From NCBI GenBank assembly GCA_040385685.1, contig JAZKGW010000034.1, positions 389 to 64,388 of the forward strand: a stretch of DNA of 64,000 bases. The letters are read 5' to 3'. The translations under genes were made by a program, and so were the position numbers. The stretch comes from Verrucomicrobiota bacterium. Lineage in GTDB: Bacteria; Verrucomicrobiota; Verrucomicrobiia; Verrucomicrobiales; Akkermansiaceae. This document shows positions 43,829 through 47,004 of the stretch, one piece after another. Under the pieces are notes generated by a model, which saw only the letters and a list, made by a program, of their open reading frames with translations, had not been told where the DNA came from and did not search any database. How positions within the stretch are numbered: position 1 is the first letter of the stretch; each line of letters opens with the position of its first letter.

Positions 43829-43960
43829 GGAAATCAAGCATCGGTTACCATCCCCACTCATTGTTGGCATTGCAGCCGTTGCAACAATCCTCCGGAGAAT
43901 CTTCTCGCTACACCGCGCGATTCCCGCGACCTTGTGCCGTAACTAATCACACTGTTCGCT
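43829..43960 (+). repeat. Degenerate attC-like site upstream of cassette 1
   Basis: Ends in core GTTCGCT (43954-43960) 5 nt before ATG; only weak arm pairing (GTTAC/GTAAC). Confidence 0.4.
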
Positions 43961-43965
43961 ACAAA

Positions 43966-44532
43966 ATGAAGAGCTCCGTGGTCACACTCTTAATCTGTTT
44001 CGCTCTGCCCAGCATTGGCAAAAGCGATGAAGCAAAGAACGTGGCGCTCACGAATGACGAAGTCAGCGCAGCGACGATCATTCGAGCGAGCCGTGATTCA
44101 ATTCTGATCAGATTTACCAACAAGAATTCATATCCGGTTGTTGTGCCCATACCTGAAGGTGTCCTTGAGAGGAAGCGTGGGGACAGATGGGAAGATCTTA
44201 GAGTACCAGGTTGGATTTGTGGTTCAGAGCTGGCGAATATCCCATCAAGCGTGCAGGTGGGAACAGGTAAGACCGTGGAACTTGAGTTTCGACCGGGCAT
44301 CACTCACAAGCTGGTCGATTTGAAGATTGGCGACGAGATTCGATTCTCATTTATCCACGTGAAGCCGAATGGCAATGCCCCCGGGGAGCACGATCGTGAG
44401 AGAATTCGGATAGTCACTTCCCAAACATTCAAAATCGAACAAGCCGGCGCTGGACAACCCGCTACTGCCTCCGAGTCAAAGCTGGAGGGTGGCGAGACCC
44501 CTAAACCTGAATCGGAGCCTTCATCCCGGTAG
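43966..44532 (+). CDS. Cassette 1: hypothetical exported protein; C-terminus runs into attC
   Basis: Signal peptide MKSSVVTLLICFALPSIGKS; tail EQAGAGQPATASESKLEGGETPKPESEPSSR is encoded by the attC. Confidence 0.75.
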   Translation: MKSSVVTLLICFALPSIGKSDEAKNVALTNDEVSAATIIRASRDSILIRFTNKNSYPVVVPIPEGVLERKRGDRWEDLRVPGWICGSELANIPSSVQVGTGKTVELEFRPGITHKLVDLKIGDEIRFSFIHVKPNGNAPGEHDRERIRIVTSQTFKIEQAGAGQPATASESKLEGGETPKPESEPSSR

Positions 44533-44558
44533 CGGGTGCCAGGACTCTAACGTTAGCC
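44434..44558 (+). repeat. attC site 1
   Basis: R'' ATCGAAC, arms CTGGACAACCCGCTAC / GTAGCGGGTGCCAG, R' GTTAGCC. Confidence 0.85.
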
Positions 44559-44564
44559 GAATAA

Positions 44565-45125
44565 ATGAACCTAGTGCGCGCATTTCTGGCTTTTTCGGCT
44601 GTCCTCCTTTGTGCATGCGATAAATCGCCGGAAGTTACGACCGGATCGTCCAACGCTGAGGGCAAGGTCGAGCCCAAGGTCGGAAGCGAGATCGATGGGA
44701 TTGACGTTTCCAAATTGGAGGGATGGGCGGAGCTTTCCTCGGATGGGCGAGCCGCCGTCGCTGACTTTGTCCGTGAGGCAAGAGCTCTGGACGCTGAATG
44801 GTTAGAGCTCCAGCGAGCGATGAATGCCGCGAGCGAGCCAAAACAGTTTGTCGCCGCGCTGAATCGATTTACTGCGGCCCTAAGTGAGTGGTTGCCCGGA
44901 TACTTGAAGGCCGGGGAAAATTTGAGAATGTTTGATGGACTACGGAATGCCGAAGAATACTTATTTGCTCAGCTCCAATCCAAGGGCCCGGATCTCAGCG
45001 CAATTGTCGGCAAAGTAGGAGAGGTCTACGAAAGGTTTTCAGAGGATCAGGAAGTGCGGGCATCGACACAAAAATTAATTCCGGTGGTAGAGGTGCTTAA
45101 CTTTCGGCACTCGTTGTGCCGTTGA
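44565..45125 (+). CDS. Cassette 2: hypothetical lipoprotein
   Basis: Lipobox AVLLCAC; ATG 6 nt after attC1 core. Confidence 0.75.
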   Translation: MNLVRAFLAFSAVLLCACDKSPEVTTGSSNAEGKVEPKVGSEIDGIDVSKLEGWAELSSDGRAAVADFVREARALDAEWLELQRAMNAASEPKQFVAALNRFTAALSEWLPGYLKAGENLRMFDGLRNAEEYLFAQLQSKGPDLSAIVGKVGEVYERFSEDQEVRASTQKLIPVVEVLNFRHSLCR

Positions 45126-45185
45126 AGCATTCTCGCCACCCTTAGGGAACCTGCATTCAATCCTTATCCAGAAGAAAATGAGTAA

Positions 45186-45274
45186 GGCTAACAAGCCGTG
45201 AGATGCAACCGGCGATAAGCCTGCAAGTTGAATTTGAGCTTCCCATCGCCGGTGCATCCACTCTAACGTTCGCT
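45186..45274 (+). repeat. attC site 2
   Basis: R'' GGCTAAC, arms GATGCAACCGGCGAT / ATCGCCGGTGCATC (one extrahelical base), R' GTTCGCT. Confidence 0.9.
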
Positions 45275-45280
45275 TTGAAA

Positions 45281-45691
45281 ATGATCCGTGCACATACACT
45301 TCTTGGCGCTGCAGTCGTTCTCGTTGTTTCGTGTGACAAGCAGAACGGGCAATCGACGCAGGGGGACGGTGACTCAGAGAGCGAACCCGCCGTGAAGATC
45401 GCTACAAAGATTCATGTTGAAGTGCAGCCGGGGTTGGTCACGGTCACGGATCGTCAGGCGCGTTTGGTGGCAGGCGTGAAGGAACTTTCCAAAGGTCTGT
45501 CGCCACAGGAGGCGAAGCAACGATTGGGGAACGCGAGGGAGGAGCGCACGGATCTCTTGTTCTACAACTTAGCTGAAGACGTTAATGGCGGTAATTTTGT
45601 GACCGCCGGCTTGAGTTTTGATGACGACGGGCTGGCATCGGCCGCAATTGGTTTCGGCCACGTCACCCTCGAACCCAGGACTGCAGAATGA
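45281..45691 (+). CDS. Cassette 3: hypothetical lipoprotein
   Basis: MIRAHTLLGAAVVLVVSC lipobox; ATG 6 nt after attC2 core. Confidence 0.75.
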   Translation: MIRAHTLLGAAVVLVVSCDKQNGQSTQGDGDSESEPAVKIATKIHVEVQPGLVTVTDRQARLVAGVKELSKGLSPQEAKQRLGNAREERTDLLFYNLAEDVNGGNFVTAGLSFDDDGLASAAIGFGHVTLEPRTAE

Positions 45692-45695
45692 AGGG

Positions 45696-45821
45696 AGCGA
45701 GTGGAGGCGCAGCAACCCTCACTAGCCGCCATGTTCTCAACCTCATCCGTAACATGAACCTCAACTCCGCGTTCAACGCCCGCCCCCGCCAGTGGGGTTG
45801 TCAGCTCTTGAATCGTTCGGC
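45696..45821 (+). repeat. attC site 3 (R'' degenerate)
   Basis: Arms CAACCCTCACTAGC / GCCAGTGGGGTTG, R' GTTCGGC; R'' apparently eroded to AGCGA. Confidence 0.65.
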
Positions 45822-45869
45822 GAAAAAAGACCTGGCAGCGAGCTGGTGCGTAATCAAATCCCAGACACG

Positions 45870-46445
45870 ATGAAGACGATAGCGCACCGCGGAGGAATGA
45901 AGAAAGGAATGCAGAACTCTCCTGGGGGAGTACGACTGGCTGCTCAGAATGGAGCGGACATTGTCGAGCTTGACGTAGTGAAAGGAATGGATGGTGCGTA
46001 TCATTGCGCGCACGGGCTGGGCAGACGAAGAATGTTGGATGAATGTTTGGCGGAAATGGGGGACCACATGGAACTTATCATTCATTTAAAAGGCCGCTAT
46101 GTGGAGGCGGACCTAGTTCGGCTAGTAGATCTGATTATACAACGTTTACCCTTACCTAGGGTATTCTTTGCATCACACCACTCTAAAGTGCTTCGGCAGT
46201 TGCGTGAATTGGCTCCAGGAGCGCGTTTCGCGCGATTTGGACTGTTTCCGGCAATAATGGCTTTGTGGAGGCGCCAGCCATGGGAGTGTTGCATGATTAA
46301 CCAATCGGTGTTGCTAAAGTGGCACGTCGCGGAACTGCAGCGAAAGAATTACTTGGTGTTTGCGAGCTGTGTATGGGAGTTGCGAAGCAGGGAGGGAATA
46401 AAGCGACTCGGAGTGGATGGGGCATTCGTAAATCTATATCAATAA
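45870..46445 (+). CDS. Cassette 4a: glycerophosphodiester phosphodiesterase-like protein
   Basis: IAHRGG, QNS, GADIVELDV; lower GC than flanks. Confidence 0.7.
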   Translation: MKTIAHRGGMKKGMQNSPGGVRLAAQNGADIVELDVVKGMDGAYHCAHGLGRRRMLDECLAEMGDHMELIIHLKGRYVEADLVRLVDLIIQRLPLPRVFFASHHSKVLRQLRELAPGARFARFGLFPAIMALWRRQPWECCMINQSVLLKWHVAELQRKNYLVFASCVWELRSREGIKRLGVDGAFVNLYQ

Positions 46446-46455
46446 CCAGGAAAAA

Positions 46456-46926
46456 ATGCCAATGCTAGCAGACATAGGGACGACCCTCGAAGTTTCACCA
46501 TCGGATGAGGTCCAGTATCGGCTGGGCGATGGCTCAAGCGGATTTCTGGATGACCGGACGCCTTTCCGATTTGAGGTGGCAGGTAGATTGGAAGATGGGC
46601 AGATCTTCTACGGCCTGTTTGGTCCCGTGGTCTCCGGCCCTAGCCGTTACCTGGGCCTGATCTGCAACATCGTAATCCGAGTGGATGGCTCCGATTGGCG
46701 GCAGGAACAGCTTAGCCACGCCGCCTTTCGGCTCGGACCGAGCGTCGCCCGGAGAGATCACCGATATGATTTCCGCCATCCCGAAGGAATCAAGGTGGCG
46801 GGGTTTCCGCGATTTGGTAGGTTTGGCGAAGTTGAGGTCGTCGATGATTCGTATCCGCGACCTCGCAAGGGATCCATTCTTGAGCCTCACGAGTGGCCGG
46901 ACGGCTTGGTTCGTGACCGACCTTAG
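46456..46926 (+). CDS. Cassette 4b: hypothetical protein
   Basis: ORF 10 nt after 4a with AGGA RBS. Confidence 0.6.
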   Translation: MPMLADIGTTLEVSPSDEVQYRLGDGSSGFLDDRTPFRFEVAGRLEDGQIFYGLFGPVVSGPSRYLGLICNIVIRVDGSDWRQEQLSHAAFRLGPSVARRDHRYDFRHPEGIKVAGFPRFGRFGEVEVVDDSYPRPRKGSILEPHEWPDGLVRDRP

Positions 46927-46956
46927 CGAGTCGTGCGGTTCACGCCGGCATGTGAT

Positions 46957-47004
46957 GCCGAATGCCGCCGTGTTGGAGGCGTATGGCTGGTGCCTCCTTA
47001 CACC
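46957..47004 (+). repeat. Truncated attC-like remnant closing the array
   Basis: GCCGAAT (near-complement of the GTTCGGC that opens cassette 4), hairpin GTGTTGGAGGC / GCCTCCTTACAC, no GTT core. Confidence 0.45.

Follow-up and report, generated by a model that had tools for sequence, protein, structure and literature searches.

Evidence for an orphan integron platform, headed by an attI-type leader, in an Akkermansiaceae genome

An integrase-less cassette array behind an attI-type leader

We analysed a stretch of 64,000 nucleotides (the window, C34:389-64388) on the 88.8-kb contig C34 of a Verrucomicrobiota bacterium of the family Akkermansiaceae, the genome of which comprises 6.76 Mb in 65 contigs at ~60% GC. 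The relatives of its HisA, with 88% identity for the top match, mark it as an Akkermansiaceae / Luteolibacter-like member of this phylum. A previous reading, made from the letters of the window only (hereafter the sequence-only reading), had described in it an integrase-less array of attC sites, with cassette boundaries that bear the footprint of recombination by an integron integrase (IntI). Our results uphold this description: the attC sites are supported by covariance models and no recombinase was found on C34. They further indicate, with a probability that we put at roughly 0.85, that positions 43690-47066 constitute an orphan integron platform, that is, an attI-type leader without an integrase gene, followed by three cassettes ending in attC sites and by a terminal two-gene unit devoid of attC (Table 1). 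Some 20 modules headed by such a leader are dispersed across the genome, and this locus is one of them.

Covariance models recover the attC sites at the cassette ends

To search for attC sites we used two covariance models trained on sites of this genome, and not the attc_4 model of IntegronFinder. The first (R1) was built from 11 sites of an array on contig C44 only; of its 17 pairs, 14 show compensatory changes. The second (R2) was built from 49 sites of the genome, none of which lies in the window. In the R2 alignment 88% of cells are paired, versus 63% after shuffling, and none of 500 shuffles reached the observed covariation score; the resulting attC consensus contains 17 pairs, with compensatory changes in 15. 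When both strands of the window (128 kb) were searched with R2 and filters off, the top three matches were attC2, attC1 and attC3, located at the cassette ends given by the sequence-only reading. Two of these sites have E-values at or below 1e-5, and the third, with E 0.08, lies at the predicted place and on the predicted strand. The same search yielded no match upstream of 43954 or at 46957. In the window, R1 recovered attC2 with 66.4 bits and E 1e-15. Genome-wide, it retrieved 51 sites, of which 17 are on C44, 2 in the window (attC1 with 25.7 bits in this search) and 32 on other contigs, either in small clusters or as single sites.

The three sites have the length (within ~57-141 nt) and the imperfectly palindromic, covariation-supported structure of attC. 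The terminal motifs RYYYAAC and GTTRRRY are found in attC1 and attC2, which share the spacers AAC-AAGCCG and ACTCTAAC-GTT; these had been pointed out before, and they fit the genome-wide consensus. In attC2 an unpaired spacer AAGCC is followed by a stem with bulged bases on the '' arm and by the spacer TCTAAC. Its bottom strand folds with a z-score of -4.5 (none of 200 shuffles was as stable), and it is 84.5% identical to the C44 array site closest to the contig end (144463-144545). The other two are members of attC sub-families with a long loop and have ~80% paralogues at other places in the genome, namely C13:220283-220401 and C53:78253-78358 for attC1, and C13:331130-331236 and C1:187664-187727 for attC3. 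The fold of attC1 is marginal (z -1.6) and the minimum-free-energy fold of attC3 is not distinctive. Alignment of attC3 to the model and to its intact paralogue on C13 places its R'' at 45692-45698, where the conserved AAC has become AGC, so that it departs from the motif RYYYAAC. We also observed that attC1 covers the last 99 nt (33 codons, 44434-44532) of orfA; the attC site or the protein tail, or both, could be under constraint.

The eight heptamers on which the sequence-only reading rested are all present, at 43954, 44434, 44552, 45186, 45268, 45696, 45815 and 46957, and their pairing fared differently from one case to the next. The perfect pair GTTAGCC (44552) and GGCTAAC (45186) lies within two model-supported sites. 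In the first pair, GTTCGCT (43954) and ATCGAAC (44434) do match at six of seven positions, but the GTT that opens it does not end an upstream attC; it is where the crossover of an attI-type leader lies. For the third pair an attC site does exist, but the closing core AGCGA had been placed at 45696, four bases away from the actual R''. The fourth retains its opening core, GTTCGGC at 45815, and loses its closing core at 46957 (see below).

That GTT and AAC heptamers and hairpins could coincide by accident in ordinary intergenic DNA deserves mention, since short cores such as GTTCGGC are common at 60% GC and the fourth pair is indeed at chance level. We give this explanation virtually no credit. 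The E-values of 3e-17 and 9e-6 come from a model that contains no sequence of the window, paralogous attC families and paralogous cassettes exist, and the GC content dips at the locus; the searches with R1 and R2 refute it.

A conserved leader ends at the first cassette junction

The sequence-only reading had the array decaying at both ends. This holds for the right end, where attC3 is mutated, the attC between orfD and orfE has been deleted and none follows orfE, but not for the left one, where the attI-type leader is intact. We considered whether an attC had decayed upstream of 43954 and rejected this: there is no model match there, and instead a conserved leader ends at G↓TT (the arrow marks the crossover). 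BLAST against the genome itself showed that 43702-43970 has copies of 70-78% identity on six other contigs, where in each case a cassette and an attC site follow directly; nhmmer profile searches raised the number of copies to at least 20, and most of these stand at the head of a small array. Across the copies, conservation ends precisely at G↓TT. The four bases after the junction GTT were compared with the R'' of the first downstream attC, taken as its reverse complement, and matched at 38 of 48 positions, against 23.3 after permutation (none of 100000 permutations reached 38). Because the junction bases covary with the R'' of the first downstream attC, they constitute the signature of attI × attC insertion.

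Within the leader, the inverse core and core have the consensus CCGnAAC-GAATCACACT-GTTnnnn across copies, and two direct repeats occur further upstream, the pair reading GCATCnGTTACC in the copies. By analogy with DR1 and DR2 of attI1, these repeats are putative accessory IntI-binding sites.

The identity of the leader is provided by a genome of the same genus, G243. On its contig C215, the leader (83 bits, profile positions 44-270) fills the 288 nt that separate the start codon of intI (~941) from the first cassette, in divergent orientation, with the junction ACT|GTTCGGC at ~653; the intI gene is intact (322.6 bits). Since the leader lies there between intI and the first cassette, we conclude that it represents the attI site and intergenic region of an integron lineage, and by homology the leader of the window occupies the attI position, with its junction at G↓TT. 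G243 also carries orphan leaders followed by attC arrays on two other contigs. Among 30 other family members none has the leader beside intI: this leader type is lineage-specific and, beyond the present genome, was found only in G243, G201 and G240, the last two having partial copies without the junction part.

Several copies in the genome under study have particular arrangements. Four leader junctions (C41:105096-105186, C12:361896-361991, C20:283744-283823 and C13:297747-297818) have no detectable attC within 3 kb downstream, and are either empty platforms or the heads of arrays with decayed attC sites. At C13:331782-332515 two leader copies stand back to back, ~540 nt apart; one heads a minus-strand array of three attC sites, which includes a cassette with a paralogue of orfD, and the other heads a plus-strand array.

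These data also bear on the possibility that the cassettes entered at a secondary site (attC × attG), the upstream likeness being then a dispersed repeat or regulatory element that acts as an insertion hot-spot. This route has been shown experimentally and has been proposed as a source of small clusters of attC sites that have no integron integrase (CALINs) and of single attC sites lacking integron integrases (SALINs; 10.1101/2022.09.11.507474). The four copies without detectable attC and the partial copies in G201 and G240 would be compatible with it. However, attG sites are very diverse, unlike attI (10.1101/2022.09.11.507474), while here an element of ~265 nt is found at 20 or more loci with the same crossover base. 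Moreover, the leader is the intI-to-cassette intergenic region in G243, and its paired inverse core and core resemble those of an attI simple site. Instead of an isolated cassette at a non-att site, we find three cassettes in series behind an att-type platform. We therefore regard secondary-site insertion as very improbable.

The only integron integrase of the genome is encoded elsewhere

The absence of a tyrosine recombinase, reported before for the window, extends to the whole of C34, on which neither TIGR02249 nor PF00589 has any match. Consequently there is no integron integrase within cluster distance of the attC sites, nor an intI gene adjoining and divergent from the leader, as in a complete integron. 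A single match above the TIGR02249 cut-off was found in the genome (C44:670-1578, 297.5 bits). It belongs to an intI gene on the plus strand (C44:325-1602) that stands beside its own attI (49-324). C44 also bears an array that counts at least 17 attC sites. They belong to the family seen in the window, lie on the minus strand from the contig end inward (133217-144604) and have the consensus ..GAAC-AAGyCGT...stem...ACwyTTAAC|GTTCGGC. In most successive pairs of these sites the R' of one is complementary to the R'' of the next. The genome thus holds one intact intI, with a same-family array, on a contig other than C34, which fits the earlier proposal that the array has become separated from a distant integrase or is served by it in trans. 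The attI region of C44 ends in GAATACACT|GTTCTGC, similar to the end of the leader, and is otherwise unrelated to it.

On C44 itself (144.6 kb), intI, attI and the start of the first cassette run off the contig start, and the array lies at the other end. This orientation is expected if the two ends are adjacent, be it in a circular replicon or across an assembly-breaking array; a circularity check found no overlap between the ends. The resident IntI and that of G243 (L010:325-700, L142:941-1300) have in common an N-terminal extension (..FGF..WFE.WR.R...), ~100 aa long, that precedes the SAM-like domain. In the family, a large number of IntI frames measure 420-480 aa rather than ~320 aa, which suggests a clade-specific extra domain. 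Most integrase matches in the family are situated no more than 1-2 kb from a contig end, as would follow if assemblies break at cassette arrays.

Active platform or fossil

The structure of the locus points to cassettes that would have been inserted one by one, as circles, through IntI-mediated recombination of a folded bottom-strand attC with the G↓TT of the leader. Such recombination of its attC with the leader G↓TT would explain why the TTnnnn at the start of each cassette is complementary to the inverse core of that attC; cassette 2, for instance, opens with TTAGCC, the perfect complement of the GGCTAAC that forms its R''. In such a platform, transcription would start in the leader, as from the Pc promoter in other integrons, and all genes do read away from it. 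Cassettes 1 and 2 might be cut out in trans by the IntI of C44, which might perhaps also bring in new cassettes. That attC1, attC2 and the leader core are still competent and are acted upon by this integrase is a tentative proposal, which we rate as possible and somewhat short of probable because the specificity of an IntI for attI tends to be narrow, and this integrase has an attI of its own that differs from the leader. On the other hand, attC3 and the orfD-orfE unit are fixed relics.

The competing explanation is an inert fossil, the remnant of a formerly complete integron, or of a copy of one, whose cognate integrase has disappeared from the genome, on which the IntI of C44 is inactive and nothing moves. 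Part of the evidence agrees with it and at the same time tempers our interpretation of the locus as a platform. The terminal unit and attC3 have decayed: the conserved triplet of attC3 is mutated, and attC sites are missing between orfD and orfE and after orfE. The leader copies, 70-78% identical, and the paralogous cassettes, at ~80% (70-80% overall), imply that the modules are old. The attI of C44 has no GAAC inverse core 10 nt upstream of its GTT, and its region has no paralogues in the genome. The leader-type IntI is absent from this genome, and identity between the resident IntI and its leader-adjoining counterpart in G243 amounts to only 55%, so that cross-recognition of the leader by the resident IntI is uncertain. 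Two further points weigh on the platform interpretation alone: attC1 is weak with the narrow model R1 (E 0.01 to 1.3), and no sigma-70 promoter consensus was found in 43400-47300, leader included, by a scan that does not cover verrucomicrobial promoters.

Against the fossil stand the attC1, attC2 and leader core sequences, which retain all conserved positions and every sequence feature of recombination substrates, as well as the close likeness of attC2 to a site of the C44 array. Recognition of attC by IntI is structural and promiscuous. The surroundings of the leaders further argue against a fossil that arose through some 20 independent deletions in situ: the 2.5 kb upstream of each of 21 leader junctions held no IntI remnant, and the homology among the five full-length copies extends no more than roughly 100 nt upstream of their first conserved block. 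Taken together, we consider the fossil a serious contender, slightly on the doubtful side.

Three cassettes and a fused terminal unit

The coordinates of all features are given in Table 1. The cargo consists of secreted proteins and lipoproteins, encoded in the same orientation, and the distance from G↓TT to ATG is 12-13 nt in the cassettes. Beyond the weak GDPD match of orfD, Pfam searches returned nothing for the cargo proteins.

Table 1. Features of the orphan integron platform in the window.
Feature	Position	Strand	Description
attI-type leader	43690-43953	+	~265 nt; GC 0.55; ends at the crossover G↓TT; no intI
Leader direct repeat a	43744-43755	+	GCATCTGTTACC; conserved block across leader copies
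Leader direct repeat b	43838-43849	+	GCATCGGTTACC; most conserved leader block, present in G243 too
attI-type core	43937-43960	+	CCGTAAC (inverse core), then a spacer of 10 nt (TAATCACACT) and G↓TTCGCT (core); the crossover falls between 43954 and 43955
Cassette 1	43955-44552	+	Leader G↓TT to attC1; GC 0.52
orfA	43966-44532	+	188 aa; signal peptide; no Pfam family
attC1	44434-44558	+	125 nt; long loop; R'' ATCGAAC, R' GTTAGCC; R2 30.9 bits, E 9e-6
Cassette 2	44553-45268	+	attC1 to attC2
orfB	44565-45125	+	186 aa; lipoprotein-like signal
attC2	45186-45274	+	89 nt; canonical; R'' GGCTAAC, R' GTTCGCT; R2 75.8 bits, E 3e-17
Cassette 3	45269-45815	+	attC2 to attC3
orfC	45281-45691	+	136 aa; lipoprotein signal (LVVSC)
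attC3	45692-45821	+	130 nt; degenerate; R'' AGGGAGC, R' GTTCGGC; R2 15.6 bits, E 0.076
Terminal fused unit without attC	45816-47066	+	orfD and orfE, then hairpin
orfD	45870-46445	+	191 aa; weak GDPD match
orfE	46456-46926	+	156 aa
Terminator-like hairpin	47037-47066	+	From terminator scan

The unit that follows attC3 opens at a genuine cassette boundary. A paralogue of orfD (76% aa identity) forms a complete cassette at C13:329891-329168, with the same GTTCGGC and A-rich start and an attC of its own; because this paralogue starts a bona fide cassette in the same way, the boundary at 45815 is real. As for orfE, a homologue (86%) on the metagenome contig L161, which holds several attC sites of this family, opens a cassette right after the R' of an attC (GTTCTGC-AAATAT-ATG), and homology between L161 and the window begins exactly at the ATG of orfE and stops 8 nt past the stop codon. 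In the window the two genes are 10 nt apart, with no att junction between them, and searches with R1 and R2 found no attC after orfE. Since the counterparts on C13 and L161 are separate cassettes, we conclude that orfD and orfE are two cassettes fused by loss of the intervening attC.

A fourth attC had been proposed to close this unit with the core GCCGAAT (46957-46963). We rejected it: there is no model match at E≤10 with filters off, the triplet is AAT and not AAC, and no GTT follows downstream. Such a core is at chance level, a match of six in seven positions being expected ~0.3 times in ~250 nt. The hairpin at 46957-47010 folds with a z-score of -2.8 and is not homologous to the attC of the orfD cassette on C13.

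A distant homologue of orfE, P0042, carries an Imm32 immunity-protein domain, and it is conceivable that orfD and orfE form a toxin/immunity-like pair. The orfD paralogue on C13 has no adjoining orfE.

The array is a low-GC insertion next to hisA

The array sits between hisA (42626-43396, minus strand) and a gene of 236 aa at 47152. GC content is 0.51-0.58 across ~43690-47150, close to the value of the C44 array (0.533), versus 0.63-0.65 in the flanks. This low-GC foreign block is slightly wider than the span of 43829-47004 given by the sequence-only reading. In 80 related species hisA and the E1-alpha gene are conserved, and homology ends at the start codon of hisA (43396). The upstream side of hisA is different in each of these relatives, so that no empty site can be defined, and neither orfA-F nor the leader was found near hisA in any of them. 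The absence of the module upstream of hisA in all 80 species supports the cassette nature of its cargo. An Rfam scan of 43000-48000 gave no attC match and a single chance match to a long non-coding RNA.

The gap between hisA and the leader measures 294 nt. This region (43397-43689, ~290 nt, GC 0.65) has no homologue in relatives or in the rest of the genome, except for 43646-43699, a stretch in common with the leader copy of C51. On the other side, the 236-aa gene at 47152 has a paralogue of 67% aa identity at C44 111318-111785, and directly downstream of the array lies a gene (47882-53884) for a secreted repeat protein of 2000 aa, autotransporter- or adhesin-like.

Discussion

CALINs have been defined as attC clusters without an integron integrase (Cury et al. 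2016, PMC4889954; IntegronFinder). Half of them occur in genomes with an IntI elsewhere, 95% have no intI pseudogene nearby, and integrons have been reported in Verrucomicrobia (PMC4889954). The locus described here resembles them in its two to three attC sites within 1.4 kb, its co-oriented, apparently promoterless small open reading frames of unknown function, and the lack of a nearby intI in a genome that encodes IntI elsewhere; attC1 and attC2, as detected by our own-genome models, are 628 nt apart and hence within the 4 kb that delimit such a cluster of two or more sites. No intI pseudogene or insertion sequence was seen beside the locus. It differs from CALINs in keeping an attI-type leader at its head and in being one of many such modules in one genome.

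With sedentary chromosomal integrons, which comprise intI, attI, Pc and a long array, the locus has in common the attC family (that of C44), the short distance from G↓TT to ATG, a cargo of secreted proteins and lipoproteins of unknown function and a GC content below that of the genome; unlike them it has no intI in cis and only three or four cassettes, partly decayed. The leader can likewise be compared with attI1 of class 1 integrons: both are hairpin-free sites of the double-stranded type whose 3' end carries the G↓TT crossover, and both have a paired inverse core and core as well as two direct repeats with GTTAC upstream. Nevertheless, the leader has no sequence homology to attI1 (DR1, DR2, L and R boxes, GTTRRRY crossover), its binding by IntI is putative, and it greatly exceeds attI1 (roughly 65 bp) in length, with repeats ~115 and ~210 nt from the crossover and an inverse core 10 nt from the GTT. 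Insertions at attG sites and SALINs (10.1101/2022.09.11.507474) are also cassettes outside an integron in an IntI-encoding genome, but the insertion point of our locus is a conserved, repeated platform that received several cassettes in series.

The CALIN is in itself ordinary; it is the many orphan attI platforms, about 20 versus one IntI, that are unusual. Our literature search retrieved no description of a genome in which most dispersed arrays are headed by a conserved attI-type leader. One interpretation of this arrangement is a distributed integron, in which a single IntI would serve about 20 attI-type platforms, each of them heading a short array and probably driving its expression. We hold this to be rather unlikely at present. 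This interpretation takes in at least one other species of the genus as well, and under it the leader would be a copyable platform module and not the debris of about 20 integrase losses.

CALINs are common and their origin is debated, with integrase loss, rearrangement and secondary-site insertion having been proposed. Here the left boundary can be read: small arrays start at one conserved attI-type site that adjoins intI in a relative, so that in this lineage CALINs are integron platforms without integrases. If the leader is indeed a copyable platform module, this would give a defined origin to many CALINs. Integron integrases are widespread in Akkermansiaceae, 89 of the 201 genomes sampled having a match above the TIGR02249 cut-off and many having two to four. 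The question of whether CALINs are alive becomes testable with defined substrates, namely the leader, attC2 and the IntI of C44. If this IntI serves the platforms in trans, cassette capture and expression would be spread over many chromosomal sites instead of being confined to one array.

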